From sequence record KJ748011: a stretch of DNA of 39,093 nt; one strand, given 5' to 3'. The notes below the pieces were generated by a model. It was not told the DNA's origin. It made no database searches and was given only the letters and a program-made list of their open reading frames with translations. The translations under genes were made by a program, and so were the position numbers. The DNA is from Escherichia phage PE3-1. Shown here in pieces: positions 2,869 through 39,088 of the stretch; within the stretch, counting starts at the first letter, position 1, and each line of letters begins with the position of its first letter.

Positions 2869-2874
2869 TTCTGA

Positions 2875-2896
2875 CTTAACTATCACTATAGGACTC
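2875..2896 (+). promoter_or_regulatory. Phage RNAP promoter CTTAACTATCACTATAGGAC upstream of gene 1
   Basis: Matches the 11-copy intragenomic consensus; expected TSS at the GG after TATA. Confidence 0.75.
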
Positions 2897-2965: not shown

Positions 2966-5647
2966 ATGAGCGTCATCTCCATTGACAAACACGACTTCTC
3001 TGACGTGTCGAACGCAATTGAGCCGTTTAACCTGCTGGCCGACCACTACGGGCAGGACCTTGCAGTAAAACAGCTTCAGCTTGAGCATGAGGCATACACT
3101 GAAGGCGAGCGACGTTTCATCAAGAACCTTGAGCGCCAGACAGAGCGCGGGGAACTGGCAGACAATCAGGTCGCCAAACCTTTGATGCAGACTCTGGTCC
3201 CTAAGATTGCGCAAGCCGTCAAGGAGTGGCATGAAGGCCCAGACGGGAAGCTGTCAACCTCTCGTCCTAGCGTAGCGTTCACCATGTTGAGCACTGAAGA
3301 GAAGGCCGTAAAGGACCGCTCTCTGCGCATCTCCTGTGAGTCTGCTGCGGTCATCATACTGAAGGTCATCCTCTCCAAGCTGGTCAAGCCTGAAGGTATC
3401 CCGATTACACCGATGGCCTCCGCGATAGGCCGTACACTTGAGGATGAAATCCGCTTCGGTCGCATTCGTGACAAGGAGCAGGAGCACTTCAAGAAGGCGA
3501 TAGCTGAGAACCTGAACAAGCGAGCCGGGGCATCCTATAAGAAAGCCTACATGCAAGCGGTTGAGACCTCCATGCTGGAGCAAGGTCAACTGGAAGATGC
3601 GTGGGGTACTTGGAGTCCGACCGAAGCGGTACACGTTGGCATCAAGATGCTTGAGATTGTCATCCAGTCTACACAACTGGTTGAGCTTAAGCGTTACGGT
3701 GCTGGCAATGCAGCGACTGATGTTGAGATGGTCCACCTGTCAGACTTCTGGGTAAAGAAGATGGCACAACGTGGATTCAGCCTTGCGGGTATTGCGCCAG
3801 TCTATCAGCCTTGCGTCGTTCCACCTAAGCCGTGGACGGGTGTCGTAGGTGGTGGGTACTGGGCCAAAGGTCGCAGACCATTACCACTGATTCGCTTAGG
3901 GTCTAAGTCTGCGGTAGCACGTTACGAAGACGTGTATATGCCTGAAGTCTACGAGGCAGTAAACATCATCCAGAATACACCTTGGAAAGTGAACAAGAAG
4001 GTGCTGGACGTGGTGAACATGGTAGAGAAGCTGAACAATACGCCTATTGATGACATCCCTCAGATGGAACCACTGAAGCCTGAGGACTATGCGGGTGAGA
4101 CCGAGGAGGAACTCAAGGCATGGAAGAAGGCTGCTGCTGGCATCTATCGCCGCGAGAAGGCCAGACAGTCACGCAGATTGTCACTGAGCTTTATCGTCAA
4201 CCAAGCGAATAAGTTCTCTCAGTTCAAGGCCATCTGGTTCCCATACAACATGGACTGGCGCGGTCGCGTCTACGCTGTGCCGATGTTCAACCCTCAGGGT
4301 AACGACATGCAGAAGGGTCTCCTGACTCTGGCAGTCGGTAAGCCTATTGGTGCTGATGGTTTCAAATGGCTGAAGGTCCATGGTGCAAACTGTGCGGGTG
4401 TCGATAAAGTCACCTTCGAGGAGCGCATCAAGTGGGTGGAAGACAACCACGACAACATCATGGCTGCTGCCAAAGCCCCGATGGATAGCATTGAGTGGTG
4501 GGGCAGGTTAGACTCTCCGTTCTGCTTCCTTGCGTTCTGCTTCGAGTATGCTGGCGTAATGCACCACGGCCTGTCTTACTCCTGCTCGCTACCGATAGCG
4601 TTCGATGGGTCCTGCTCTGGGATTCAGCACTTCAGCGCGATGCTTCGTGACCACATCGGTGGACATGCAGTAAACCTGACGCCATCCGGTAAGGTCCAAG
4701 ACATCTACCGCATCGTGTCCGACCGCATTGAGGAGGAGCTTAAAGTCCTGCTGGTTAACGGTACGGACAACGAGATGGTAACTCACGAGGACAAGAAAAC
4801 TGGTGAGATTACCGAACGTCTCAAGCTGGGGACACGAGAGCTGGCCCGTCAGTGGCTGACCTACGGTATGTCACGCAAGGTCACTAAGCGTTCGGTCATG
4901 ACTCTGGCCTACGGGTCGAAAGAGTATGGCTTCGCAGACCAAGTTTACGAGGATATCGTGATGCCAGCGATTGATTCAGGGTCTGGCGCTATGTTCACTG
5001 AACCAAGCCAAGCGTCTCGCTTCATGGCTAAGATGATTTGGGAAGCTGTGAGTGTGACCGTAGTTGCTGCGGTTGACGCGATGAAGTGGCTGCAAGGTGC
5101 TGCCAAGCTGCTGGCTGCTGAGGTGAAGGACAAGAAGACTGGTGAAACCCTGAAGCCTTGCCTTCCGGTACACTGGGTCACACCTGATGGTTTCCCTGTC
5201 TGGCAGGAATACCGCAAGAAGGATACTACTCGTCTGAACCTTATGTTCCTAGGGTCATTCAACCTTCAGCCTACAGTCAACAAAGGCACTAAGAAGGAGC
5301 TGGACAAGCACAAGCAGGAGTCAGGCATTAGCCCGAATTTCGTCCACTCGCAAGATGGTAGCCACCTCCGCAAGACTGTAGTCCACACGCACCGCAAGTA
5401 TGGCGTGATGTCATTCGCAGTGATTCACGATAGCTTTGGGACCATCCCGGCTGACGCTGAATATCTGTTCCGTGGCGTCCGTGAGACGATGGTTGAGACC
5501 TACCGAGACAACGATGTGCTGCTTGACTTCTACGAGCAGTTTGAATACCAGCTACATGAGAGTCAGCGCGACAAGCTGCCTGAGCTTCCGAAGAAAGGTA
5601 AACTGAATATCGAAGACATCTTGTCTTCAGACTTTGCATTCGCTTAA
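2966..5647 (+). CDS. 1: Single-subunit DNA-dependent RNA polymerase (T7 gp1 family)
   Basis: 893 aa, collinear with T7 RNAP along its length (e.g. FPYNMDWRGRVYAV, LPLAFDGSCSGIQHFSAMLRD, FALIHDSFGT, C-terminal SDFAFA). Confidence 0.98.
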   Translation: MSVISIDKHDFSDVSNAIEPFNLLADHYGQDLAVKQLQLEHEAYTEGERRFIKNLERQTERGELADNQVAKPLMQTLVPKIAQAVKEWHEGPDGKLSTSRPSVAFTMLSTEEKAVKDRSLRISCESAAVIILKVILSKLVKPEGIPITPMASAIGRTLEDEIRFGRIRDKEQEHFKKAIAENLNKRAGASYKKAYMQAVETSMLEQGQLEDAWGTWSPTEAVHVGIKMLEIVIQSTQLVELKRYGAGNAATDVEMVHLSDFWVKKMAQRGFSLAGIAPVYQPCVVPPKPWTGVVGGGYWAKGRRPLPLIRLGSKSAVARYEDVYMPEVYEAVNIIQNTPWKVNKKVLDVVNMVEKLNNTPIDDIPQMEPLKPEDYAGETEEELKAWKKAAAGIYRREKARQSRRLSLSFIVNQANKFSQFKAIWFPYNMDWRGRVYAVPMFNPQGNDMQKGLLTLAVGKPIGADGFKWLKVHGANCAGVDKVTFEERIKWVEDNHDNIMAAAKAPMDSIEWWGRLDSPFCFLAFCFEYAGVMHHGLSYSCSLPIAFDGSCSGIQHFSAMLRDHIGGHAVNLTPSGKVQDIYRIVSDRIEEELKVLLVNGTDNEMVTHEDKKTGEITERLKLGTRELARQWLTYGMSRKVTKRSVMTLAYGSKEYGFADQVYEDIVMPAIDSGSGAMFTEPSQASRFMAKMIWEAVSVTVVAAVDAMKWLQGAAKLLAAEVKDKKTGETLKPCLPVHWVTPDGFPVWQEYRKKDTTRLNLMFLGSFNLQPTVNKGTKKELDKHKQESGISPNFVHSQDGSHLRKTVVHTHRKYGVMSFAVIHDSFGTIPADAEYLFRGVRETMVETYRDNDVLLDFYEQFEYQLHESQRDKLPELPKKGKLNIEDILSSDFAFA

Positions 5648-5659
5648 CAGGAGAGAGTT

Positions 5660-5875
5660 ATGAAATTTGCACACAAGCAGGCTGGCGTTAATGGTGGGAC
5701 TCAAATCGTGACCGTAACAGAACACAACGGCAAGGGTCTGGTGAAGACCACGGTCATCCCTACCGAGCTGTCAAAACAGCTTAACGTACCATTCAAGACC
5801 CTCGTCCATCTTGTGGAATCCAACCACGAGAAGTACCTGAAAGACGCAGTGTCTAAGCTGGAGCAGACCAAATGA
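5660..5875 (+). CDS. Hypothetical protein (71 aa) between RNAP and the 1.1 promoter
   Basis: ORF with AGGAGAG RBS; no T7 counterpart recognised at this position. Confidence 0.5.
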   Translation: MKFAHKQAGVNGGTQIVTVTEHNGKGLVKTTVIPTELSKQLNVPFKTLVHLVESNHEKYLKDAVSKLEQTK

Positions 5876-5950
5876 CAGACCTACAGTTACTGGCCTTGTG
5901 GCTAGGAGCACTAGCAGTATTCACTTTAATCCAACGCAGAAGAGGTTAGC

Positions 5951-5972
5951 CTAAACTATCACTATAGGATTA
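5951..5972 (+). promoter_or_regulatory. Phage RNAP promoter CTAAACTATCACTATAGGAT (phi1.1 position)
   Basis: Consensus match; the T7 primary replication origin lies at the corresponding place. Confidence 0.8.
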
Positions 5973-6012
5973 GACTCAAGGTCATGACTCAAAGTCGTGG
6001 CCTTCATGATTA
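5971..6012 (+). promoter_or_regulatory. RNase III processing hairpin (R1.1-like)
   Basis: TAGACTCAAGGTCAT..(11 nt)..GTGGCCTTCATGATTA; AAGGUCA pairs with UGGCCUU; near-identical to recalled T7 R1.1 and to two other copies in this window. Confidence 0.7.
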
Positions 6013-7983: not shown

Positions 7984-8022
7984 TTATGCTAGAAAGCTAT
8001 CGTCTGGGCCACCAGCTAGACC

Positions 8023-8044
8023 CTAAGCTATCACTATAGGACAC
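8023..8044 (+). promoter_or_regulatory. Phage RNAP promoter CTAAGCTATCACTATAGGAC
   Basis: Consensus match with one upstream substitution. Confidence 0.75.
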
Positions 8045-8070: not shown

Positions 8071-8331
8071 ATGTCTAAGAACTTAATGTTCAATCGTTAT
8101 TCCAATACCTTCCACCTGTCCAACAACCCGTTCGCTTGCATTAAGCGCAACGAGAAGCTGTGCTACTTCGGGAAGGCCGTTAAGCTGGCACCTACAGTCT
8201 TCGCTCTGATTACTCCGGGTAAAGCTGAAGAGGCTCGCCAGAAGCGTGAGACCGACGTACCTGTGGTCTACACAAAGTGGCCACGCGTCCGTCTGTTCGT
8301 TGAGTTCGTGAAGGAGGTGGTTAATGCTTAA
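8071..8331 (+). CDS. gp1.6-position hypothetical protein (86 aa)
   Basis: ORF with AAGGAG RBS immediately after a promoter; assignment by synteny only. Confidence 0.6.
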   Translation: MSKNLMFNRYSNTFHLSNNPFACIKRNEKLCYFGKAVKLAPTVFALITPGKAEEARQKRETDVPVVYTKWPRVRLFVEFVKEVVNA

Positions 8332-8846: not shown

Positions 8847-9001
8847 CTGAGGTTGAGAAGAAATACATCGTGGAGCTTGAGGGTCGAGTTCAGTCCTTCG
8901 AGGTTCCGGTGTACGCAAAGTCTCTTGAAGAGGCTACCCTGAAGTCCCAAGAGTATGAGGACGCTGGGTTTGTGGTAGGACGGATTCGTCCTGAGACTTA
9001 A
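8843..9001 (+). CDS. 2: gp2-like inhibitor of host RNA polymerase
   Basis: 52 aa; [25 protein letters not shown] parallels T7 gp2; GGAG RBS 8 nt upstream. Confidence 0.8.
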
Positions 9002-9019
9002 ACTATCACTGTAGGACAG
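8997..9019 (+). promoter_or_regulatory. Phage RNAP promoter variant CTTAAACTATCACTGTAGGAC (phi2.5 position)
   Basis: One substitution at -3 relative to consensus; directly upstream of SSB. Confidence 0.65.
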
Positions 9020-9058: not shown

Positions 9059-9754
9059 ATGGCTAAAGAGCAACTGAAGACTTTCACCACTCCGGTAGCT
9101 GGTATCGTTGAGCCTTACGCATGGCTGAACAAAGCAGACACCAAGTTCAACGAGCGTGGTGAACATAAAGTCAACCTGACATTCGACCTGAGCAACCCGA
9201 AGGTCCGTAAGATGATTGATGTCTTACAGAAGATTCACGACGATGCATATGCGAAAGCACTCGCAGACCACGAGAAGAACCCGCCTCAGGTTCAGCGTGG
9301 CAAGAAGCCTATTGAACCACGAGAAGGCGACATGCCGTGGATTGAGAATGGTGACGGTACTGTTACCCTGAAGTTTAAATGCTTCGCGTCTTACCTGAAA
9401 GACGGCAAGTCCGAGCCTATCGTATTACGGTTCTACGACACCGATGCTAAACTCATCCGTGACGTCCCGAATATTGGCTCAGGGTCTAAGCTGAAGGTCA
9501 AGTTTAAAGTCCTGCCGTTCAAGTGGAACGCTGCGACTGGTGCAAGCATTAAGCTCCAGCTTGAGTCCTGCCTTATGGTAGAACTGAAGGAGTGGAAAGG
9601 TGATGGTGCTGGTGGCGATGGTGGCTGGGGTGATGATGAAGACCTCGGTACTGGCTACAAAGCGCCAACCGATGGTGACTTCGGGTCTGATGACTTCGGC
9701 GACGATGGTTCCGAAGGTGGTGATGAAGATACTGCAGGAGACTACGACTTCTAA
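9059..9754 (+). CDS. 2.5: Single-stranded DNA-binding protein (gp2.5)
   Basis: 231 aa; AEPYA, RGKKP..P.EGDMP, NGDGT.T.KFKC.AS, GSKLKVK..PFKWN, acidic C-terminal tail ending in F, as in T7 gp2.5. Confidence 0.95.
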   Translation: MAKEQLKTFTTPVAGIVEPYAWLNKADTKFNERGEHKVNLTFDLSNPKVRKMIDVLQKIHDDAYAKALADHEKNPPQVQRGKKPIEPREGDMPWIENGDGTVTLKFKCFASYLKDGKSEPIVLRFYDTDAKLIRDVPNIGSGSKLKVKFKVLPFKWNAATGASIKLQLESCLMVELKEWKGDGAGGDGGWGDDEDLGTGYKAPTDGDFGSDDFGDDGSEGGDEDTAGDYDF

Positions 9755-11579: not shown

Positions 11580-11795
11580 ATGATTAAACTTATTGAATTT
11601 CTAGGTCGTCTGGTGGTGCGTGGTTATCGTCGTGCTGCGGTTCTGGAACGAAAGGTAGAAAAGAAGACTGCTGATGATGCGGCTGATGCTGCTGCTCTGG
11701 CTGACAAGCTGACCATCGCATCACTGGAAGCTGGCATGAAGGCTCGTCAGGCTGATACCAAAGCTAACCAGTTGGCTCAGTTCTTCAAAGACTAA
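11580..11795 (+). CDS. Hypothetical protein (71 aa), Ala/Lys-rich, predicted helical
   Basis: ORF with AAAGGAG RBS immediately after lysozyme. Confidence 0.55.
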   Translation: MIKLIEFLGRLVVRGYRRAAVLERKVEKKTADDAADAAALADKLTIASLEAGMKARQADTKANQLAQFFKD

Positions 11796-11813
11796 ACTAT
11801 CACCTTAGGGATG
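11792..11813 (+). promoter_or_regulatory. Phage RNAP promoter variant CTAAACTATCACCTTAGGGAT (phi3.8 position)
   Basis: Two substitutions in the -5 to -3 region; probably weak. Confidence 0.5.
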
Positions 11814-11863: not shown

Positions 11864-13692
<1,829 letters not shown>

Positions 13693-13962: not shown

Positions 13963-16134
13963 ATGTTTGACCTTAAGAGTATCTGGGGTTCTGACATCGA
14001 GACAAACGGTCTCCTTGATACAGTCTCCCAGTTCCACTGCGGGGTCCTGATTAACGCCGAGTCGAATGAGACCCTTAAGTATGGGGTAGCTCCGATGGTC
14101 GGTATCGTCGGTGGCTTCAAAGAGTATGTGCATAAAGTGGAAGAGATTGCCGCATCACCTGATGGTATGCTGGCATTTCACAATGGTATCACCTATGACG
14201 TCCCTGCTATTGACAAGCTGAAACGTCTGTACTTTGGGAAACGCTTTAACTTCCCGAAACACAAGATGATTGATACCTTGGTGCTGGGACGCTTGATGTA
14301 TCCAAACATTAAGTTCTCAGACATGGGAGCGGTGAAAGCTGGTCGTCTGCCACCTCAGATGATGGGACGACAGTCTCTTGAGGCTTGGGGTTATCGTCTC
14401 GGTGAGATGAAAGGTGAGTACAAACACGATTACGTTGCCAAGTGCAAGGCTGAAGGTATCGAATATAAGGCTGGGGACGAATGGTTGTTCCCGTCTCAGA
14501 AGATGCTGGACTATAACGTTCAAGACGTTGTGGTCACACTGGCGTTGTTCAAGAAGTTCCTGACTGACAAGTATTACTTCCAGTCTGAACAGTTCGCTTT
14601 CGACCAGATTTATGCGTTGCGTCTGGAACATGATGCTGCGTGGACCTGTGCGAAGATGGAACGTAACGGCTATCCAATGAACACCGAGATGGTCGAAGGC
14701 TTATATCGTGAACTCACCGTCAAACGTGCAGAGCTGCTTGACAAGCTGCGTTCGACTTTCGGTAGCTGGTACGCACCAAAGGGAGGCAAGGAGTTCTTCC
14801 GGCACCCACGGACAGGCAAGGACCTTCCGAAGTATCCACGAGTCGTGTATCCTAAGGTCGGGTCAGTATTCAAGAAGCCGAAGAACAAAGCTCAACGCTT
14901 AGGTCTGGAGCCTTGCGAGTTCGACTCACGAGACACGATGGAGGGAGCACCGTTCACACCTATCACTTACGTTGAGTTTAATCCGGGAAGCGGAGACCAC
15001 TTAGCGAAAGTTCTGATGGAGCGTGGTTGGGAGCCTGTGGACTTCACTGACACCGGTAAACCTGTAGTCGATGACGAGACGTTAGAACACGTTAAGTTGC
15101 CAGACTTAGAGGCTCAGGCTTGCGTAGAGCTGGTCCGTGAGTATCTGGTAGTCCAGAAGCGCATCGGTCAGGCTGCTGAAGGTAAGAACGCATGGTTGAA
15201 ACTTGTAGGTCCAGACGGACGTATGCACGGTTCAATCAACCCATGCGGGGCAGTAACAGGACGTGCGACTCATAGTTCACCAAACATGGCTCAGGTCCCT
15301 GCTAACGGTGCTCCATATGGTGAGATTTGCCGTGGTGCTTTCGGTGCAGCTTGGAACAAAACGGATGGTAAGCCAGACCCTTGGATTCAAGTTGGTGTGG
15401 ATGCTTCAGGTCTTGAGCTTCGTTGTCTGGGGAACCGAGCAGCTCCATTTGATGGTGGTGACTATGCGAAGACTGTGGTCGAAGGTGACATCCACTGGGC
15501 CAATGCAGTCAACGCTGGGTTAGCACCTAACGTCCCACGCGATAAGTCGAACCACGACCATGATGCTTTCCGTAACAACGCTAAGACGTTCATCTATGCG
15601 TTCCTGTATGGTGCAGGGGCAGCTAAGATTGGACTGATAGTAGGAGGAGGTAAGAAGGAAGGTTCAGCTCTCATGAAGAAATTCATTGAGGGTACACCAG
15701 CCATCAAAGACCTCAGGGAAGCTGTTAGTAATACGTTAATCTCAGACTCTAAGTGGGTGGACGGTGAGAATATCGTCAAGTGGAAACGCCGTTGGTTGCG
15801 TGGACTTGATGGTCGCCGTATCCACATCCGGTCTCCACACTCAGCACTGAACGCATTACTCCAAGGAGATGGTGCGGTAGTCTGTAAGCACTGGATTGTA
15901 GAGACTGAACGTATGCTCGAAGAGGCAGGGTATGTTCACGGCTGGGAAGGTGACTTTGCGTACATGGCTTGGGTGCATGACGAATTGCAGATTGCGTGTC
16001 GTACTCAGGAGATTGCCGAAGAAGTCGTCAAGATTGCTCAACTTGCTATGCGTAAGGTGGGTGAGTTTTATAACTTTAAATGTGTCCTTGATACCGAAGG
16101 TAAGATTGGACCAACGTGGAAGGAGTGTCACTAA
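13963..16134 (+). CDS. 5: DNA polymerase (gp5, family A with 3'-5' exonuclease)
   Basis: Collinear with T7 gp5 (DIETNG, YNVQDVVVT, NPGS.DH, RAKTFIYAFLYGAG, HDELQ); start moved to ATG 13963 (GGAGG RBS), track ORF 13927 in same frame. Confidence 0.97.
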   Translation: MFDLKSIWGSDIETNGLLDTVSQFHCGVLINAESNETLKYGVAPMVGIVGGFKEYVHKVEEIAASPDGMLAFHNGITYDVPAIDKLKRLYFGKRFNFPKHKMIDTLVLGRLMYPNIKFSDMGAVKAGRLPPQMMGRQSLEAWGYRLGEMKGEYKHDYVAKCKAEGIEYKAGDEWLFPSQKMLDYNVQDVVVTLALFKKFLTDKYYFQSEQFAFDQIYALRLEHDAAWTCAKMERNGYPMNTEMVEGLYRELTVKRAELLDKLRSTFGSWYAPKGGKEFFRHPRTGKDLPKYPRVVYPKVGSVFKKPKNKAQRLGLEPCEFDSRDTMEGAPFTPITYVEFNPGSGDHLAKVLMERGWEPVDFTDTGKPVVDDETLEHVKLPDLEAQACVELVREYLVVQKRIGQAAEGKNAWLKLVGPDGRMHGSINPCGAVTGRATHSSPNMAQVPANGAPYGEICRGAFGAAWNKTDGKPDPWIQVGVDASGLELRCLGNRAAPFDGGDYAKTVVEGDIHWANAVNAGLAPNVPRDKSNHDHDAFRNNAKTFIYAFLYGAGAAKIGLIVGGGKKEGSALMKKFIEGTPAIKDLREAVSNTLISDSKWVDGENIVKWKRRWLRGLDGRRIHIRSPHSALNALLQGDGAVVCKHWIVETERMLEEAGYVHGWEGDFAYMAWVHDELQIACRTQEIAEEVVKIAQLAMRKVGEFYNFKCVLDTEGKIGPTWKECH

Positions 16135-16433: not shown

Positions 16434-16639
16434 GTGAATACTTACGGGTCCTAGCGGCCCTTAAGTCCTGCCCGAAGACCTTCCAGTCCAACTATGTGCG
16501 CAACAACGCTGCACTTGTGGCTGAGGCTGCGAGTCGTGGACATCTGAGCTGCCTGTCTACGGATGGGCGTAACAATGGTGCGTGGGAGATTACCGCTGAA
16601 GGCGTTAAGTTCCTGAACCAACACGGAGGCTGTCTGTGA
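16430..16639 (+). CDS. 5.7: gp5.7-like protein
   Basis: 69 aa; LKSCPKTFQSNYVRNNAALVAEAASRGHLSCL..GRNNGAWEITA almost identical in pattern to T7 gp5.7. Confidence 0.9.
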   Translation: MSEYLRVLAALKSCPKTFQSNYVRNNAALVAEAASRGHLSCLSTDGRNNGAWEITAEGVKFLNQHGGCL

Positions 16640-17502
16640 GTGAAAAGAAAATAGCTCTTGTGTTAGATGGTGACTATCTGGTCTTCTCTTCTATGGCTGC
16701 TGCCGAGGACGAGACAGACTGGGGTGATGACATCTGGACCCTTATCTGCGACCATGAGAAGGCTCGTCGTATCCTTGAGAACACCATCGCTGAAATCGTT
16801 AAGAAGCGTAAGGCGTGGAAAGACGCTAAGATTGTGATGTGCTTTACTGATGATAACAACTGGCGTAAGGATGTTCTACCTACCTATAAGGCCAACCGTA
16901 AAGGTTCTCGCAAGCCTGTAGGTTACAAGAAGTTCGTAGCCGAAGTGATGGCTGACCCACGGTTCAACAGCTTCCTGCGTCCTACGCTTGAGGGTGATGA
17001 CTGTATGGGCATCATCGGTACCCGACCTCAGATTGTTGGGTGCGATCATGCGGTGCTGGTGTCCTGTGATAAGGACTTCAAGACCATCCCGAACTGTGAG
17101 TTCTTCTGGTTAACAACTGGTGAAATCCTGAGTCATACGACTGCTGAGGCAGACTACTGGCACATGGAGCAGACCATCAAGGGTGACACTACAGATGGCT
17201 ACGGAGGTATTCCGGGGATGGGTGAGGATACCACTCGTGCGTTCCTTGACGAGCCGTACTACTTCGTGCAGGAGAGCCGTGAGCTTAAGACTGGTAAGAA
17301 CAAAGGCCAGATTAAGACTGAGTGGAAGAAGTATCCGAAGCGTGAAGACATGACGCTGTGGGACTGCATGGTTACACTGGCTGCTAAGGCTGGCATGACC
17401 GAGGAGGAACTTCTGGTCCAAGCTCAGGTCGCTCGTATTTGTCGAGCCTCCGACTACGACCCTAAGTCCAAGGAGGTCATCCTGTGGACACCATCCATGT
17501 AA
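16636..17502 (+). CDS. 6: 5'-3' exonuclease (gp6)
   Basis: 288 aa; LVLDGDYLVF, CDHEKARRILE, PVGY, LEGDDCMGII, SCDKDFKTIPNC, TIKGDTTDGY match T7 gp6; GTG start with GGAGG RBS. Confidence 0.96.
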   Translation: MSEKKIALVLDGDYLVFSSMAAAEDETDWGDDIWTLICDHEKARRILENTIAEIVKKRKAWKDAKIVMCFTDDNNWRKDVLPTYKANRKGSRKPVGYKKFVAEVMADPRFNSFLRPTLEGDDCMGIIGTRPQIVGCDHAVLVSCDKDFKTIPNCEFFWLTTGEILSHTTAEADYWHMEQTIKGDTTDGYGGIPGMGEDTTRAFLDEPYYFVQESRELKTGKNKGQIKTEWKKYPKREDMTLWDCMVTLAAKAGMTEEELLVQAQVARICRASDYDPKSKEVILWTPSM

Positions 17503-17576: not shown

Positions 17577-17629
17577 GTCTAACCGATAGTCATATCCTAT
17601 CAATCCAATAGTCATCCATAGGTGAAACA

Positions 17630-17651
17630 CTAAACTATCACTATAGGGACT
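17630..17651 (+). promoter_or_regulatory. Phage RNAP promoter CTAAACTATCACTATAGGGAC (phi6.5 position)
   Basis: Consensus match. Confidence 0.85.
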
Positions 17652-17712
17652 TTAGGACCTAAGATATGACTATAAGATAGACTTTAGTCTTAACTTAAAG
17701 AGGAGATTCAAG

Positions 17713-18885: not shown

Positions 18886-20454
18886 ATGGCTGAACGTGAA
18901 GGGTTCGCTGCTGAAGGAGCCAAAGCGGTCTATGACCGACTTAAGAACGGTAGACAGCCATATGAGACACGCGCTCAGAACTGTGCTGCTGTCACTATCC
19001 CGTCACTGTTTCCTAAGGAGTCAGACAACTCGTCTACTGAGTACACAACTCCGTGGCAAGCTGTAGGTGCTCGCTGCTTGAACAACTTGGCCGCAAAGCT
19101 GATGTTGGCGTTATTCCCTCAGTCACCGTGGATGCGACTGACAGTCTCAGAATATGAGGCAAAGACCTTGAGTCAGGACTCAGAGGCTGCTGCTCGTGTT
19201 GACGAAGGGCTGGCTATGGTCGAGCGTGTGTTGATGGCCTACATGGAGACTAACAGTTTCCGTGTGCCATTGTTCGAAGCTCTTAAGCAGCTTATCGTCT
19301 CCGGTAACTGCCTGCTCTACATTCCAGAGCCTGAACAAGGTACTTACAGTCCTATGCGAATGTACCGCTTAGTGTCCTACGTTGTTCAACGTGATGCTTT
19401 CGGTAACATCTTGCAGATTGTGACGCTCGACAAGGTAGCGTTTAGTGCTCTACCGGAAGACGTTAAGTCTCAACTCAACGCAGACGACTATGAGCCTGAC
19501 ACAGAGCTGGAAGTGTATACGCACATCTACCGTCAGGACGACGAGTATCTGCGCTATGAGGAAGTGGAAGGCATTGAGGTAGCAGGGACAGAGGGTTCAT
19601 ACCCACTGACTGCATGTCCATACATCCCGGTACGAATGGTTCGACTGGACGGTGAAGACTATGGTCGTTCTTATTGCGAGGAGTATCTGGGAGACCTGAA
19701 CTCGCTGGAGACGATTACAGAAGCTATCACCAAAATGGCTAAGGTAGCCTCCAAGGTGGTGGGCCTCGTTAACCCGAACGGCATCACGCAACCTCGACGT
19801 CTGAACAAGGCGGCTACAGGTGAGTTCGTGGCTGGTCGCGTAGAGGACATCAACTTCCTGCAACTGACGAAAGGTCAGGACTTTACGATTGCCAAGTCGG
19901 TGGCTGACGCTATCGAGCAACGTTTAGGCTGGGCCTTCCTTCTTAATAGTGCTGTTCAGCGTAATGCCGAGCGAGTCACTGCTGAAGAGATTCGTTATGT
20001 TGCTGGCGAACTGGAGGCGACCTTAGGTGGCGTGTACTCAGTACAGTCACAAGAGCTTCAGTTACCTATCGTCCGTGTACTGATGAACCAGCTTCAGTCT
20101 GCGGGCATGATTCCTGACCTTCCGAAAGAAGCGGTAGAGCCTACGGTCTCCACTGGTCTGGAAGCTCTGGGCCGTGGTCAGGACTTGGAGAAGCTGACTC
20201 AGGCAGTCAACATGATGACTGGTCTTCAGCAGCTCTCTCAGGACCCGGACATCAACTTGCCGACCCTTAAGCTGCGACTTCTGAACGCTCTGGGTATCGA
20301 CACCGCTGGACTACTCCTGACACAAGACGAGAAGATGCAACGTATTGCTGAACAATCCGCTCAAGGAGCTGTGGTCAACGGTGCGTCTGCTGCTGGTGCT
20401 AACATGGGGGCTGCTGTAGGTCAGGGAGCTGGTGAGGACATGGCTCAAGCCTAA
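18886..20454 (+). CDS. 8: Head-to-tail connector (portal) protein gp8
   Basis: 522 aa, collinear with T7 gp8 (PYETRAQNCA, TPWQAVGAR, YRLVSYVVQRDAFGN, RVTAEEIRYVA). Confidence 0.97.
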   Translation: MAEREGFAAEGAKAVYDRLKNGRQPYETRAQNCAAVTIPSLFPKESDNSSTEYTTPWQAVGARCLNNLAAKLMLALFPQSPWMRLTVSEYEAKTLSQDSEAAARVDEGLAMVERVLMAYMETNSFRVPLFEALKQLIVSGNCLLYIPEPEQGTYSPMRMYRLVSYVVQRDAFGNILQIVTLDKVAFSALPEDVKSQLNADDYEPDTELEVYTHIYRQDDEYLRYEEVEGIEVAGTEGSYPLTACPYIPVRMVRLDGEDYGRSYCEEYLGDLNSLETITEAITKMAKVASKVVGLVNPNGITQPRRLNKAATGEFVAGRVEDINFLQLTKGQDFTIAKSVADAIEQRLGWAFLLNSAVQRNAERVTAEEIRYVAGELEATLGGVYSVQSQELQLPIVRVLMNQLQSAGMIPDLPKEAVEPTVSTGLEALGRGQDLEKLTQAVNMMTGLQQLSQDPDINLPTLKLRLLNALGIDTAGLLLTQDEKMQRIAEQSAQGAVVNGASAAGANMGAAVGQGAGEDMAQA

Positions 20455-20472
20455 ACTATCACTATAGGAACA
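20451..20472 (+). promoter_or_regulatory. Phage RNAP promoter CTAAACTATCACTATAGGAAC (phi9 position)
   Basis: Consensus match. Confidence 0.85.
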
Positions 20473-21444: not shown

Positions 21445-21446
21445 GA

Positions 21447-21468
21447 CTAAACTATCACTATAGGGAGA
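21447..21468 (+). promoter_or_regulatory. Phage RNAP promoter CTAAACTATCACTATAGGGAGA (phi10 position)
   Basis: Only copy carrying the full GGGAGA initiation sequence; precedes the capsid gene. Confidence 0.9.
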
Positions 21469-21570: not shown

Positions 21571-22620
21571 ATGGCAAACGTTCCGGGTCAGAAAATTGGT
21601 ACAGACCAAGGTAAAGGCAAATCCAGTTCCGACGCTCTGGCGTTGTTCCTGAAGGTCTTTGCTGGTGAAGTCCTGACCGCATTCACTCGCCGCTCTGTAA
21701 CCGCTGACAAGCATATTGTCCGTACCATTCAGAACGGTAAGTCTGCTCAGTTCCCGGTCATGGGTCGCACCTCTGGTGTGTATCTGGCTCCGGGTGAGCG
21801 ACTGTCCGATAAGCGTAAAGGTATCAAACATACAGAGAAAGTGATTACCATTGATGGTCTGCTGACTGCCGATGTGATGATTTTCGACATTGAAGACGCG
21901 ATGAACCACTATGACGTGGCTGGCGAGTACTCCAACCAGTTGGGTGAAGCTCTGGCTATCGCTGCTGATGGTGCGGTTCTGGCTGAAATGGCTCTCCTGT
22001 GTAACCTCCCGGCTGCATCCAACGAAAATATTGCCGGTCTGGGCACTGCGTCAGTACTTGAAGTTGGTACTAAAGCCGACCTGAACACTCCGGCTAAGCT
22101 GGGTGAGGCAATCATTGGTCAACTGACCATTGCTCGTGCGAAGCTGACCTCCAACTACGTTCCTGCTGGCGACCGTTACTTCTACACCACGCCTGACAAC
22201 TACTCTGCAATCCTCGCCGCTCTGATGCCGAACGCTGCTAACTATGCTGCGCTGATTGATCCAGAGACTGGTAACATCCGTAACGTGATGGGCTTCGTTG
22301 TTGTCGAGGTTCCGCATCTGGTACAGGGTGGCGCTGGTGAGACTCGTGGTGACGATGGTATTTCTATCGCTTCCGGTCAGAAACACGCATTCCCGGCAAC
22401 TGCTACTGGCGCTGTTAAAGTTGCTATGGACAACGTTGTGGGTCTGTTCTCTCACCGTTCTGCTGTTGGTACTGTGAAGCTGCGTGACTTGGCGCTGGAA
22501 CGTGACCGTGACGTCGATGCTCAGGGCGACCTGATTGTTGGTAAATACGCTATGGGTCACGGTGGTCTGCGCCCTGAAGCGGCTGGTGCTCTGGTTTTCA
22601 GTCAAGCAGCAAAGGGTTAA
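21571..22620 (+). CDS. 10A: Major capsid protein 10A
   Basis: 349 aa, collinear with T7 gp10A (LALFLKVF.GEVLTAF, KHTEKVITIDGLLTADV, AANYAALIDPE, MGHGGLRPEAAG). Confidence 0.98.
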   Translation: MANVPGQKIGTDQGKGKSSSDALALFLKVFAGEVLTAFTRRSVTADKHIVRTIQNGKSAQFPVMGRTSGVYLAPGERLSDKRKGIKHTEKVITIDGLLTADVMIFDIEDAMNHYDVAGEYSNQLGEALAIAADGAVLAEMALLCNLPAASNENIAGLGTASVLEVGTKADLNTPAKLGEAIIGQLTIARAKLTSNYVPAGDRYFYTTPDNYSAILAALMPNAANYAALIDPETGNIRNVMGFVVVEVPHLVQGGAGETRGDDGISIASGQKHAFPATATGAVKVAMDNVVGLFSHRSAVGTVKLRDLALERDRDVDAQGDLIVGKYAMGHGGLRPEAAGALVFSQAAKG

Positions 22621-22883: not shown

Positions 22884-22888
22884 TTGAA

Positions 22889-22927
22889 ACCCCTTGGGTG
22901 CCTTCGGGTGCTTGAGGGGTTTTTTTG
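22889..22927 (+). terminator. Intrinsic terminator (T-phi-like) after the capsid gene
   Basis: CCCCTTGGGTGCC-TTCG-GGTGCTTGAGGGG hairpin followed by T8; closely resembles T7 T-phi. Confidence 0.9.
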
Positions 22928-22941
22928 CTTAAGGAGGGCCT

Positions 22942-26102: not shown

Positions 26103-26127
26103 CTTATTGAAGGGCCTATAGATTTAC

Positions 26128-26149
26128 CTTAACTATCACTATAGGGACT
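26128..26149 (+). promoter_or_regulatory. Phage RNAP promoter CTTAACTATCACTATAGGGAC (phi13 position)
   Basis: Consensus match; embedded between a perfect 12-bp inverted repeat. Confidence 0.85.
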
Positions 26150-32500: not shown

Positions 32501-33407
32501 CAGTAAGCGTCGGTTCGATGACCGCTGGCTGAAGACCGCTGGTATCTCTGACGAGCAGTGGAAGGGCATTAAGTCCCTAATCCGTGAGTCAGTGACTCGT
32601 GGTCCAGACGGGAAGTACACCATCAAGGATAAGAAGGCGTTCAGTCAGGATCCAAGGGCTATGGACCTGTGGCGTATGGGTGACACCATCGCTGATGAAA
32701 CGTTACTACGACCTTATAAGCTGTCTAACATGGATGCCAAGGCTTATGGCCCTATCGCTAAGACTGTCCTTCAGTTTAAGAACTTCGTCATCAAGTCCAT
32801 CAATGGTCGAACCATGCGAACCTTCTATAACGCCACGAAGAACAACCGAGCGATGGACGCTGCACTGTCTACTGTGATGTCTATGGGTCTGTCTGGTATC
32901 TACTACATGGCTCAAGCTCACGTCAAGGCTTACGCTATGCAGGATGGTCGAGACCGTGAATACCTCAAGCAAGCTCTGGACCCGACGATGATTGGCTATG
33001 CGGCTCTGTCCCGTAGTTCACATCTGGGTGGACCACTTGGAGTCGCCAACATTCTTGGTGGTATCGCTGGGTATGAGGACACTAAGATGCTCCGTTCGTC
33101 TATCCTCCCTCGTTCACCTACAGAGAAGCCTGAACGTGCTTTCACATATGGTGCGTCTACAAGTGACCCTGTGATGAATATTGTTGGTAACTTCTTGGAG
33201 CAGGTTCCAGCTTTCGGATATGCTGCTAACGTTGGCGCTTCGGCTTACAACTTGGCTGGCTACCTAAAGGCTGATACTCGTGTCAACGAGCGTGACTACA
33301 TGACCGGGATGTATAATACGTTCCGTGAACTGGTTCCGAACGACCCAATTACCCAGAAGTTGCTGCTTGGAACGTTTGAGGAGCAAGGCATCCACATCAA
33401 GGACTAA
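29520..33407 (+). CDS. 16: Internal virion protein gp16 (ejectosome component) with a non-T7 N-terminal domain
   Basis: Central and C-terminal regions collinear with T7 gp16 (WFGFG, GVDPLTYVP, RSPTGMQSGASGK, ENPAMFG, RVNGDIAIM, GTTNYLLDA, RAMDLWR); start at ATG 29520 with AAGGAG RBS. Confidence 0.95.
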   Translation: MATRGIRNNNPGNIRVSKDQWEGMTGDDGAFVTFDSPESGVRALGKNLLSYGRQGYDSIEKIINRWAPPNENDTKAYIDSVVAATGIPATQSLDLSDPDTLSSLAQAISFHETGSRYDPEVYQKGVARALNGISPKTPPVSANVFDALTEGLKAKPKVALGENLPTAAGLNIEGQAPEAPNESFGEMFYKSTGETMQEREDRSTWFGFGSATESEVKNSMVGVAIRAGQTEDSLDVIGDVFNPTRWNNHKWSREELDQIRNAGVLPQYYGVITGGSPQNLTELINLALENQKLDQEKAKAGIGAQLAAGVIGAGVDPLTYVPIAGQVGKGGKLVNKMFTVAAQSGALAGVSEMARTSVAGGDAHVAEAILGGALFGGGMTAIADGLGRALGRNTNEFAGPATRLEARETARNVDGQDLSRLPIQEGEQTFSHQGVKFADVPNEPGSVRLEDGSILIGENLLNPKTRQVFDEVIEPERAAAGVNLGGLTEIGLKLLRSENPEIRGVAADLVRSPTGMQSGASGKIGTTASDVFERLRAVDHRFYNDIDDAVTEALKDPYFQTAFWRDSGAFRQDVYQRVSMAIEDGSGNLKAELTPGELKVYDLLKNQFDAKREMMENPAMFGRPDAQSIFPGSRFKGTYVPHVYSNQMKELYIKELGSPEALQEAIKKSWLTSYASRPEVKKRVDEALLESDPTLTPEGLAAAVDKYANDKAYGISHTEKFERSSVMEENINGLVGLENNSFLEARNLFDSDMSIVLPNGQTFSVNNLREWDMDKIVPAYNRRVNGDIAIMAGTGKTTKDMKDLVETMMNKAGDDGKLKGEVSTLRDTLKILTGRARRDGADDAAFATVMRTMTDLSFFAKNAYMGVQNLTEIGGMLARGNVRALLHGVPMFRDLAFRNKKVGASEIKDLHNVLFGKELDDSIRPSKQDVIDRLRSYSDLGRGTATALGTAKYYTGELAVRSPFTKVLNGTTNYLLDAGRQGFLSDIVEHSLTGSKRRFDDRWLKTAGISDEQWKGIKSLIRESVTRGPDGKYTIKDKKAFSQDPRAMDLWRMGDTIADETLLRPYKLSNMDAKAYGPIAKTVLQFKNFVIKSINGRTMRTFYNATKNNRAMDAALSTVMSMGLSGIYYMAQAHVKAYAMQDGRDREYLKQALDPTMIGYAALSRSSHLGGPLGVANILGGIAGYEDTKMLRSSILPRSPTEKPERAFTYGASTSDPVMNIVGNFLEQVPAFGYAANVGASAYNLAGYLKADTRVNERDYMTGMYNTFRELVPNDPITQKLLLGTFEEQGIHIKD

Positions 33408-33425
33408 ACTATCACTATAGGAAAC
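33404..33425 (+). promoter_or_regulatory. Phage RNAP promoter CTAAACTATCACTATAGGAAAC (phi17 position)
   Basis: Consensus match upstream of the tail fiber gene. Confidence 0.85.
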
Positions 33426-33472: not shown

Positions 33473-35659
33473 ATGTCCACTATTACACAATTCCCTTCAG
33501 GAAACACTCAGTACAGGATTGAGTTCGACTACCTAGCCAGAACGTTCGTTGTTGTTACGCTGGTGAATAGCTCTAACCCTGCCATGAACCGTGTACTGGA
33601 AGTTGGTCGAGATTACCGATTCCTTAATCCAACGATGATTGAGATGTTGATTGACCAATCAGGTTTCGACATCGTTCGTATTCACCGTCAGACTGGAACT
33701 GACTTAGTGGTAGACTTCAGGAATGGCTCAGTGTTGACAGCTAGTGACCTGACCAATGCAGAGCTTCAGGCTATCCATATTGCAGAAGAAGGTCGAGACC
33801 AAACGGTTGACTTAGCTAAGGAATATGCCGATGCTGCTAGTAGCTCTGCTGGCAGCGCTAAGGATAGCGAGGACGAAGCACGACGAATCGCTGAGAATAT
33901 CAAGGCATCTGGTCTAATTGGCCATATTACCCGTCGCTCCTTCGAGAAAGGCTTCAACGTTACAACATGGAACGAGGTCCTGCTATGGGAAGAGGATGGT
34001 GATTATTACCGCTGGGATGGTACGCTTCCAAAGAACGTTCCTGCTGGTTCAACTCCTGAAACTTCCGGTGGTATTGGGCTGGGCGCGTGGGTTAGTGTTG
34101 GGGACGCGTCATTAAGAAGCGCACTTAAAACAAATAATGGTTCCAATTTAGTTGGGACTAATAACGGATTAACTGTTCAACAACGATTAAATTTAGACCG
34201 CGCAGACATCTCTAATTACGGGTATGTTTATGGTAGTGGTGCTGATGGTAAAGACGCGGTGCTATCAGCCGTATCGGACCACGGGTACGCACACGTAACT
34301 GGCGCCACGACATTATCGAGTTTTGATTGGCCTGAAGGAGCCAGATTGACAGGAAAGGCCACCATCACATACACAAGGCTACCAAACGTTCCATGTGAAC
34401 TTGATAGTGAAATACCTGTAGACCATTCACTGATGAAGGCTGTATACGTTCATCGCGTGTTTGATATTTGTGACATGTTACAACTAAAAACCGCCGGGTT
34501 TAATACGCTAATTCACTACGGTCAAGCGTGGACAAACGGTGGGAATATGGAAAAGGCCTGTAACGCCGCAGAAGCTGTTGGGCTTAAACTTATACTTGGT
34601 GGGCCAGTATACGGGCAGACAAACACTCCGGCTACAGACCTTGACAGCAGAGATTGCGTTATCGGCTATTACTTGTTTGATGAACCGCAAAATAATTCAG
34701 TAAGCAGAGCAGTGCAAGAAACGCGCATCTCGGCATTTAAATCATTCACAGAAAAATCATTATGCATAGCTGAAAATGGTATTTTTGGGTTTGACTCAAA
34801 TACACACCCGAACGGTTATGGTGGTACTGGATATGATATTATATTTGCAGACGCGTATTACCATGATGACTGGGATGATGCCCGGAATAAGCGACAGGCT
34901 GTTATTGGGTGGGGGGAACTGAAGTATAAATGTCCCACATCAAGAATTGTACCTTGTGTTGGATTGTTTACAACTGACGCAAATGGTGGTTCTGACAACT
35001 TCAAAAACAAAGCAAAACAGATAGCTTTCGCTAAGAAGTTTTTTAACATGGGTGACGGTGAGTATGCGGCGTTCTCGTGGGAGACACAACTCATCGTAAA
35101 CACACACAACACATTGACCACCGATACTGATTTGTATGCTTTAGGGAAAGAATTAAATTCTGCACCTAGACAAAAACCTTATGACATAGATGTGTATGCA
35201 TTTTACCCGGATAGAATGGGTGGAGCTATGCAGTTGTACAATGACAAGTACAGTTCTGCCGATGTCACACCATTCCAGACTATCAATACCGGGAGCGTAC
35301 AAGGTGAGCGTAACACTACATTTAAACAGGGTGGTATTGCGGCAAGAAACACTGGCGGTGTGTTTGCTACGAGGATGAAGAACCACGGCTACATAGCCTT
35401 TGAGCTGTATTATTTTAATGGGGCAGATTCTGCGAATACTTCAGCAGCAATAACAACATGTACTGATGACTTCTACACTAATACAGAGCAATTAACATTC
35501 ACGTACAATAATTCAAATAACGCGTGGATTAAGTCTGTTGAAACAGCTCCCAATTTGGGTGTTGGTATAAAGCTTGTTCCTTCGGCGTCGTACAACATGC
35601 GGTGGAAGATGGTGCGCGGAGGGATTATCGATTGCTCGTGGAGGGGAGAGGAGATATAG
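33473..35659 (+). CDS. 17: Tail fiber / receptor-binding protein: T7 gp17-like N-terminal anchor fused to a distinct C-terminal domain (possible glycan depolymerase)
   Basis: First ~150 aa parallel T7 gp17 (FDYLARTFVVVTLV, RDYRF, DFRNGSVLTASDLTNAELQAIHIAEEGRD); the remaining ~570 aa have no T7 similarity and sit in visibly AT-richer DNA. Confidence 0.9.
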   Translation: MSTITQFPSGNTQYRIEFDYLARTFVVVTLVNSSNPAMNRVLEVGRDYRFLNPTMIEMLIDQSGFDIVRIHRQTGTDLVVDFRNGSVLTASDLTNAELQAIHIAEEGRDQTVDLAKEYADAASSSAGSAKDSEDEARRIAENIKASGLIGHITRRSFEKGFNVTTWNEVLLWEEDGDYYRWDGTLPKNVPAGSTPETSGGIGLGAWVSVGDASLRSALKTNNGSNLVGTNNGLTVQQRLNLDRADISNYGYVYGSGADGKDAVLSAVSDHGYAHVTGATTLSSFDWPEGARLTGKATITYTRLPNVPCELDSEIPVDHSLMKAVYVHRVFDICDMLQLKTAGFNTLIHYGQAWTNGGNMEKACNAAEAVGLKLILGGPVYGQTNTPATDLDSRDCVIGYYLFDEPQNNSVSRAVQETRISAFKSFTEKSLCIAENGIFGFDSNTHPNGYGGTGYDIIFADAYYHDDWDDARNKRQAVIGWGELKYKCPTSRIVPCVGLFTTDANGGSDNFKNKAKQIAFAKKFFNMGDGEYAAFSWETQLIVNTHNTLTTDTDLYALGKELNSAPRQKPYDIDVYAFYPDRMGGAMQLYNDKYSSADVTPFQTINTGSVQGERNTTFKQGGIAARNTGGVFATRMKNHGYIAFELYYFNGADSANTSAAITTCTDDFYTNTEQLTFTYNNSNNAWIKSVETAPNLGVGIKLVPSASYNMRWKMVRGGIIDCSWRGEEI

Positions 35660-38509: not shown

Positions 38510-39052
38510 ATGAGTAAACAGAAGGCCATCGACAGGGTGGCCCTCTTTAATCACTATGCTTATGTAGATGGTGAGTTGGTGTGTAGGAAACCTTATAAAG
38601 GATCTCGCAAGAAGCCCGGTGAGGTAATGGGACATTCAGTTCATCCGTCTGGGTACGCAATCGTGAAGGTTCTTGGCAGTCGGTATAGACGTGCCAGAAT
38701 CATCTACAGCCTAGTCGTTGGTCGAATACCTTCTGGCATGATGGTTGACCATATCAATGGTGATAGACTTGATGACAGGCCGGATAACTACAGGTTAGTA
38801 ACAGCATTAGAGAACCGATGGAACTCAGGAGGTGGCGATACTAATGGTCTACCCAAAGGTATCAGCTTTTTCAAGCCTACCGGAAAGTATCGCGCTCAGT
38901 TGCGCCTAAAAGGTAAGTGCTTCACGAAGACCTCAGATTCCATAGAGGAACTAGAGGTGTGGCTTGATGCTTTACGCACTGAGAAGCACAAGGAATACGC
39001 AGTAAACCGACGGTCCCCTAAGCGTGATAGGACCCATAGAAACCACAAGTAA
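38510..39052 (+). CDS. HNH homing endonuclease with AP2-type DNA-binding domain (second HNH-AP2 copy)
   Basis: 180 aa; GMMVDHINGDRLDDRPDNYRLVTALEN plus AP2-like GKYRAQLRLKGKCFTKTSDSIEELEVWLDALR; strong GGAGGAGG RBS. Confidence 0.88.
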   Translation: MSKQKAIDRVALFNHYAYVDGELVCRKPYKGSRKKPGEVMGHSVHPSGYAIVKVLGSRYRRARIIYSLVVGRIPSGMMVDHINGDRLDDRPDNYRLVTALENRWNSGGGDTNGLPKGISFFKPTGKYRAQLRLKGKCFTKTSDSIEELEVWLDALRTEKHKEYAVNRRSPKRDRTHRNHK

Positions 39053-39066
39053 ATTCAATAGGTTAA

Positions 39067-39088
39067 CTTAACTATCACTATAGGGATG
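39067..39088 (+). promoter_or_regulatory. Phage RNAP promoter CTTAACTATCACTATAGGGAT near the right end (phiOR position)
   Basis: Consensus match; 27 nt from the end of the window. Confidence 0.8.

Follow-up and report, generated by a model that had tools for sequence, protein, structure and literature searches.

The genome of Escherichia phage PE3-1 (KJ748011), all 39,093 nucleotides of which make up the window analysed here, carries eleven copies of a repeated site of 21-23 bp that we interpret, with a probability of about 0.95, as the class II and class III promoters of a K1F-like phage of the T7 family, recognised by the phage's own RNA polymerase (RNAP; 2966-5647). The interpretation rests on the sequence family, its statistics, its synteny, and identity to published or validated promoter parts and to the K1F specificity loop; start sites and promoter strengths during infection by PE3-1 are predictions made from the sequence. 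The finding is correct but ordinary, since promoters of the K1F class are annotated in sister genomes, have been tested biochemically and are used as an orthogonal part. The class, that of K1F and the genus Kayfunavirus, is thus already annotated, characterised and in use, the genome is already in GenBank, and there is nothing novel in the promoter/polymerase specificity itself. What is gained is annotation, namely eleven K1F-class promoters and a K1F-type RNAP, for which the results published on K1F and Ro45Iw can be used directly. Synthetic biologists already have the pair among their tools, and the importance of the finding beyond annotation is small.

Searching the window for TAAACTATCACTATAGG with no more than two mismatches returned 11 matches, all on the plus strand (starts at 2876, 5952, 8024, 8999, 11793, 17631, 20452, 21448, 26129, 33405 and 39068; 0-2 mismatches per site), where dinucleotide-preserving shuffles gave an expectation of 0.08 and none reached 11. 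All eleven sites listed in the preliminary description were found within 1 nt of their positions there, the 1-nt offsets arising from an optional leading C that had been counted. When the sites were aligned on the presumed +1 G, the conserved block extended from -17 to +4, with positions -15, -13, -11 to -5 and -2 to +2 invariant. A position weight matrix of the kind that the preliminary description had called for was built from the 11 sites over -17 to +4 and scanned on both strands of the circularised genome. Its own sites scored 29.4-36.5 bits, far above any other position; the next best, on either strand, scored 14.1 bits, a gap of 15 bits, and the highest score over 50 shuffles was 18.6 bits. 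The scan of both strands of the circularised genome gave no additional weak, minus-strand, cryptic or phiOL-equivalent promoter, and because the runner-up fell below the shuffle maximum we take the family to have exactly 11 members, with no hidden twelfth. That runner-up is a weak promoter-like sequence, CCTAAGATATGACTATAAGAT, at 17658-17678, 27 nt downstream of the phi6.5 promoter, and since its score is below the shuffle maximum it is probably a chance occurrence or a decayed duplicate.

The sites (-17 to +6), with the terminator that follows the capsid gene block, are as follows.

2874..2896, plus strand: predicted promoter ACTTAACTATCACTATAGGACTC, +1 at G2891, 34.3 bits; intergenic, between ORF 2476-2868 and the RNAP start codon (ATG, 2966), and so upstream of gene 1.
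5950..5972, plus strand: predicted promoter CCTAAACTATCACTATAGGATTA, the site of the original finding (reads cCTAAACTATCACTATAGGATTA), 34.0 bits; identical in sequence to the CR44b promoter at 4876-4898; after ORF 5660-5875 (gp1.1-like) and upstream of the gp1.15/1.2/ligase block.
8022..8044, plus strand: predicted promoter, variant CCTAAGCTATCACTATAGGACAC (A-12G), 32.3 bits; upstream of gp1.6 (8071-8331); variant also in K1F, CR44b and Ro45lw, and annotated as phi1.6 in Ro45lw.
8997..9019, plus strand: predicted promoter, variant CTTAAACTATCACTGTAGGACAG (A-3G), 29.4 bits; at the 3' end of gene 2, upstream of the gp2.5 SSB gene (9059-9754); variant also in K1F and CR44b.
11791..11813, plus strand: predicted promoter, variant ACTAAACTATCACCTTAGGGATG (T-4C, A-3T), 30.4 bits; overlaps the stop codon of ORF 11580-11795, upstream of the primase/helicase gene (11992-13692); variant also in K1F and CR44b.
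17629..17651, plus strand: predicted promoter ACTAAACTATCACTATAGGGACT, phi6.5 equivalent, 36.2 bits; between the exonuclease gene (16636-17502) and gp6.5 (17713).
20450..20472, plus strand: predicted promoter CCTAAACTATCACTATAGGAACA, phi9 equivalent, 36.4 bits; overlaps the portal stop codon (gene 18886-20454), with the scaffold gene downstream (20560).
21446..21468, plus strand: predicted promoter ACTAAACTATCACTATAGGGAGA, phi10 equivalent, 36.2 bits; upstream of the major capsid gene (21571-22620).
26127..26149, plus strand: predicted promoter CCTTAACTATCACTATAGGGACT, phi13 equivalent, 34.9 bits; between gp12 (ends 26102) and gp13 (26179).
33403..33425, plus strand: predicted promoter ACTAAACTATCACTATAGGAAAC, phi17 equivalent, 36.5 bits; overlaps the gp16 stop codon (ends 33407), upstream of the tail fibre gene (33473).
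39066..39088, plus strand: predicted promoter ACTTAACTATCACTATAGGGATG, phiOR equivalent, 35.0 bits; reads over the sequence junction into the right-end region (1-728).
22886..22933, plus strand: Tphi-like intrinsic terminator downstream of the capsid gene block, a strong hairpin with a 17-bp stem and a T-run behind it.

On the ORF map and the annotations of JSS1, K1F and CR44b, the sites lie in intergenic gaps or at gene 3' ends, directly upstream of gene blocks that follow the T7 order (gene 1, 1.1/1.2/ligase, 1.6, 2.5, 4, 6.5, 9, 10, 13, 17 and the right end). The three degenerate sites (8024, 8999 and 11793) are all in the DNA-metabolism region and the promoters of the structural genes have the consensus sequence, which mirrors the split between class II and class III promoters in T7; in the transcription programme that we propose, the degenerate class II sites would serve DNA metabolism and the consensus sites would drive the structural and late genes. 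The phi10 equivalent shares the initially transcribed GGGAGA of T7 class III promoters. Also T7-like are the Tphi terminator after gene 10, which by analogy would bound the phi9/phi10 transcription unit, and the phiOR at the right end, while the two phages differ in that there are 11 promoters here and that the matrix scan found no phiOL-type site.

With T7-group promoters the sites share a block of about 23 bp (-17 to +6), a CACTATAG-type half from -7 to +1, G at +1 and +2, and multiple copies on the coding strand of a genome that also encodes a cognate single-subunit RNAP (ORF 2966-5647). The preliminary description had equated the -7 to +1 half with that of T7 and placed the difference upstream, and both statements hold against T7 promoters read from NC_001604: the 23 bp architecture and the melting and initiation half, CACTATAG(G), are the same, whereas -12 to -9 reads ACTA here and CGAC in T7, and a C is conserved at -16 here. 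Over -12 to -8 the sequence is ACTAT, the K1F-class element, at 10 of the 11 sites and GCTAT at the remaining one, compared with CGACT in T7, ACCCT in T3 and GGGCA or GGACA in K11, all read from reference genomes. Compared over 23 positions with the consensus promoters of T7, T3, K11 and SP6 (the last being what we take to be the SP6 consensus), the sites differ at 5-13 positions, usually 8-13, which bears out the distinctness from these four phages that had been proposed, but the comparator that matters, K1F, had been omitted. A scan of the genome with the 23-mer consensus sequences found nothing within five mismatches of T7, K11 or the presumed SP6 promoter; for T3, the closest position was the phi10 site at five mismatches, the only such position in the genome.

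By comparison with K1F, the window is a complete, circularly permuted genome of a K1F-like phage (Kayfunavirus, species PE31). Two regions were compared with Escherichia phage JSS1 (KX689784.2, species Kayfunavirus PE31), the RNAP region and the right-hand 5.7 kb, and both showed 100% identity; for the RNAP region, K1F and many further Kayfunavirus genomes reach about 95%. Most of the genome aligns collinearly with K1F, at 85-97% identity, and together with the match to JSS1 this places it in the genus. Positions 69-728 match the right end of K1F and 539-861 match its left end, indicating that the physical termini lie near 539-728, with one copy of the terminal repeat present; the collapsed repeat is approximately 180-190 bp. 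Given the circular permutation, the site at 39068 is a right-end, phiOR-type promoter and not an edge artefact. Directly before it is a 180-aa ORF (38510-39052); the JSS1 record has an HNH homing endonuclease annotated in this region. Immediately internal to the left end are tandem repeats of a 16-bp unit, AACCATAGGTCTCAAC (6.2 copies; 739-837), and of a 44-bp unit (2 copies; 817-904), which may be analogous to the short repeat arrays that adjoin the T7 terminal repeats. These repeats produce spurious periodic sigma-70-like matches on the minus strand, and when the early region was scanned for sigma-70 promoters, 10 weak matches appeared where 4.5 were expected, four of the 10 being artefacts of the 16-bp repeat.

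Relatives within the genus carry the same promoters. In K1F (DQ111067 / AM084414) all 11 sites recur in synteny, the three variant sequences among them, and there are small changes in spacing, including approximately 128 extra bp here between the phi4 promoter and gene 4A (11866-12004). The K1F genome, reportedly published in 2005, also differs in its homing endonuclease genes, in a DNA polymerase gene that is interrupted by an insert containing a homing endonuclease and is continuous here (15978-15979), and in its endosialidase, which is unrelated to the C-terminal part of the tail fibre here (34119-35650). Citrobacter phage CR44b (HG818823), which has a different host, carries 11 annotated "predicted promoter" features, predictions as here rather than mapped starts, that correspond one-to-one to the sites in PE3-1, including the one upstream of gene 1; they are nearly or fully identical from -17 to +4, with minor differences at +4 to +6. 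Some of the sites are annotated in the Ro45lw record, one of them as phi1.6. The 15-mer core is widespread in viral contigs of roughly 39-40 kb (IMG/VR, among the matches listed), and a 2026 paper on the Kayfunavirus Sparklingdew reported the consensus CTWAACTATCACTATAGG, interpreted as promoters.

Experimental evidence comes from two members of this group. In vitro, the purified RNAP of Ro45Iw starts transcripts at a G on the minimal promoter ACTTAACTATCACTATAGGGA, and deep sequencing mapped this +1 G (J Biol Chem 2025, PMC12272871); the minimal promoter is identical to 39066-39086 here and within one mismatch of three other sites. The K1F RNAP and its promoter P_K1F are in use as an expression and mutator system that is orthogonal to MmP1 and VP4 (Nat Commun 2025, PMC12218169), and the 32-nt P_K1F part given in the supplement of that paper is identical to 20437-20468 here.

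The polymerase features to which the promoters are matched are the following.

2966..5647, plus strand: gene 1, T7-like single-subunit RNA polymerase, 893 aa; end-to-end match to T7 RNAP structures (E = 0).
3242..3274, plus strand: counterpart of the AT-rich recognition loop, DGKLSTSRPSV, residues 93-103; aligns to T7 93-101 KAKRGKRPT.
5210..5305, plus strand: specificity loop YRKKDTTRLNLMFLGSFNLQPTVNKGTKKELD, residues 749-780 (T7 739-770), by alignment and translation; identical in K1F and CR44b.

In a seven-way alignment the enzyme was 99% identical to the K1F and CR44b polymerases, 64% to those of T7 and T3, 59% to K11 and 32% to SP6. Its specificity loop and AT-rich loop region are identical to those of K1F, the roughly 1% of residues that differ all lying outside the loops. 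The Ro45lw polymerase, also of 893 aa, is 95% identical, with the same contact residues and 49 amino acid differences that include M to L (T7 position 750) and T to S in the loop. The T7 residues that form hydrogen bonds with bases are R746, N748, R756 and Q758 (PMC11880802), which correspond to R756, N758, N766 and Q768 in the enzyme here, so that among the four only R756 changes (to N). The contact segment reads IQTRLNLMFLGQFRLQPTI in T7 and DTTRLNLMFLGSFNLQPTV here, the whole segment being identical in K1F and CR44b, and in T7 numbering the changes are Q754S, R756N and I761V, with R746, N748 and Q758 retained. Alignment and translation therefore give the loop of the K1F class, with N, N and Q at 748, 756 and 758 accompanied by 754S and 761V. 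A peptide quoted in the preliminary description as the loop segment, QPTVNKGTKKELDKHKQESG, is indeed encoded, at 5267-5326, but it aligns to T7 758-777, which is mostly the distal arm and sequence beyond it, and not to the contact residues. Directly after the AT-rich loop (3275-3330; residues ~104-122) there is an 11-aa insertion relative to T7 and T3, common to K1F, CR44b and Ro45lw; K11 RNAP has a longer insertion in the same place.

By homology to T7 RNAP, the N-terminal AT-rich recognition loop would read the minor groove around -17 to -13, and the beta-hairpin of the specificity loop would read -12 to -7 in the major groove, after which the shared CACTATAG (-7 to +1) would be melted and transcription would start at the G of GG(G/A). 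The role of the AT-rich loop in reading -17 to -13 is assigned on what is known of T7 RNAP, and its counterpart here is less basic than the T7 loop, which would fit the less AT-rich sequence at -17 to -13, (A/C)CT(A/T)A with a conserved C at -16. The difference in specificity from T7 is best described as a co-varying change, in which ACTAT in place of CGACT at -12 to -8 is accompanied by Q754S, R756N and I761V in the loop. The retained contacts would fit the unchanged bases (R746 with -7, and Q758 with -8), and R756N would fit the change at -9, where the non-template C of T7 is A here. Positions -11 and -10 depart from T7 with N748 left as it is, so the three substitutions do not map one-to-one onto the four changed bases, and the changes at -10 and -11 would have to depend on context provided by Q754S, Q744T or the distal arm.

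It had also been predicted that the polymerase and its promoters form a pair orthogonal to the common laboratory systems, and here the published record supports selectivity against T7 and T3 that is less than complete. Temme and coworkers used PHIRE to predict the promoters of K1F, placed the K1F loop in T7 RNAP as a graft, and swapped -12 to -7 of the T7 promoter for the K1F consensus, which gave an active and selective pair in vivo (Temme 2012, PMC3458549). In a 2025 NAR study the K1F graft is listed (Table 2) as 754S/756N/761V with the cognate element ACTAT (PMC11880802), and these are exactly the loop substitutions and the element found here, so that the engineered T7 RNAP with the K1F loop and the K1FR sigma fragment, which both carry them, provide a direct test of the selectivity of this loop/element pair. 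These engineered systems are chimeras on a T7 backbone that retain the T7 sequence at -17 to -13, whereas the native promoter has (A/C)CT(A/T)A and the native enzyme a different AT-rich loop. It is rather unlikely, in our view, that the sites are promoters whose pairing with the polymerase is not usefully orthogonal, with significant cross-reading of T7-type promoters in both directions. Such cross-reading is suggested by the K1FR sigma fragment (T7 backbone), for which activity on P_T7 was 260 units, approximately 10% of the 2448 units on P_K1F, with 43 on P_T3 (Segall-Shapiro 2014, PMC4299498); by the 2025 NAR study, which rated that set as having limited orthogonality, with a score of 8 vs 245 for its own designs (PMC11880802); and by the -7 to +6 half shared with T7 and the conservation of R746, N748 and Q758. 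Against it, activity on P_K1F was close to background with the T7 and T3 fragments (19 and 6.7, compared with 2448; PMC4299498), and mutators built on the K1F RNAP gave a 46,470-fold increase on the cognate promoter vs 6- to 27-fold on the non-cognate MmP1 and VP4 promoters (PMC12218169). With respect to T7 and T3, the promoter is thus well separated and the enzyme incompletely so, as measured with T7 chimeras; the other biochemical data come from the Ro45Iw enzyme, which is 95% identical to the one here.

We consider it highly improbable that the repeats are dispersed cis elements other than promoters, such as replication or packaging signals, recombination hot spots, or repeats associated with homing endonucleases. 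Several homing endonuclease genes are scattered in the genome, with the site at 39066 directly after one, and T7 couples some of its promoters, phi1.1A/B and phiOR, to replication origins and packaging; both observations would suit such a role. This reading was nevertheless rejected on the orientation of the sites (11 of 11 in the direction of the genes and just upstream of gene blocks), on the preservation of their positions in Kayfunavirus genomes with different homing endonuclease genes, on a -7 to +1 half that is that of proven T7 promoters, and on the transcription of identical sequences by the cognate Ro45Iw and K1F polymerases in vitro and in vivo. Synteny and identity to validated parts support instead the original proposal that the sites are promoters for the single-subunit RNAP encoded by the phage. 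Next to no probability attaches to the idea that the pair represents a specificity class not recognised before and unlike that of any phage RNAP system characterised so far: it is true that 5 or more of 23 positions separate the element from the T7, T3 and K11 promoters and the presumed SP6 consensus, but the idea is refuted by the same element and loop in K1F, by the promoters already annotated in CR44b, by the loop grafted and tested in 2012 and 2014, with a K1F node tabulated in the 2025 covariation study (PMC11880802), by the native Ro45Iw enzyme characterised in 2025, and by a P_K1F part that is the sequence at 20437-20468.

Among the predicted K1F-class promoters, the one at 2874-2896 is of consensus quality and lies 75 nt upstream of the RNAP gene, a position conserved across four Kayfunavirus species (counterparts at 2478-2492 in K1F, 1814-1836 in CR44b and 2404-2418 in Ro45lw, where the site is a CACTAAAGG variant). 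In contrast, the T7, T3 and K11 records show only host promoters or RNase III sites upstream of gene 1, with no phage promoter annotated, and in the T7 scheme gene 1 is transcribed by the host RNAP only. A literature search found no discussion or test of a promoter upstream of gene 1. We would give even odds that this promoter makes gene 1 a natural "autogene", in which the first RNAP would be made from transcripts of the host polymerase and the phage enzyme would then amplify its own synthesis, and if so, autogene feedback at gene 1 would depart from the T7 scheme. The leaders of the first two promoters (2891-2905 and 5967-5985; GGACTCAAGGTC... and GGATTAGACTCAAGGTC...) share an 11-mer, GACTCAAGGTC, a candidate processing site or origin-related element.
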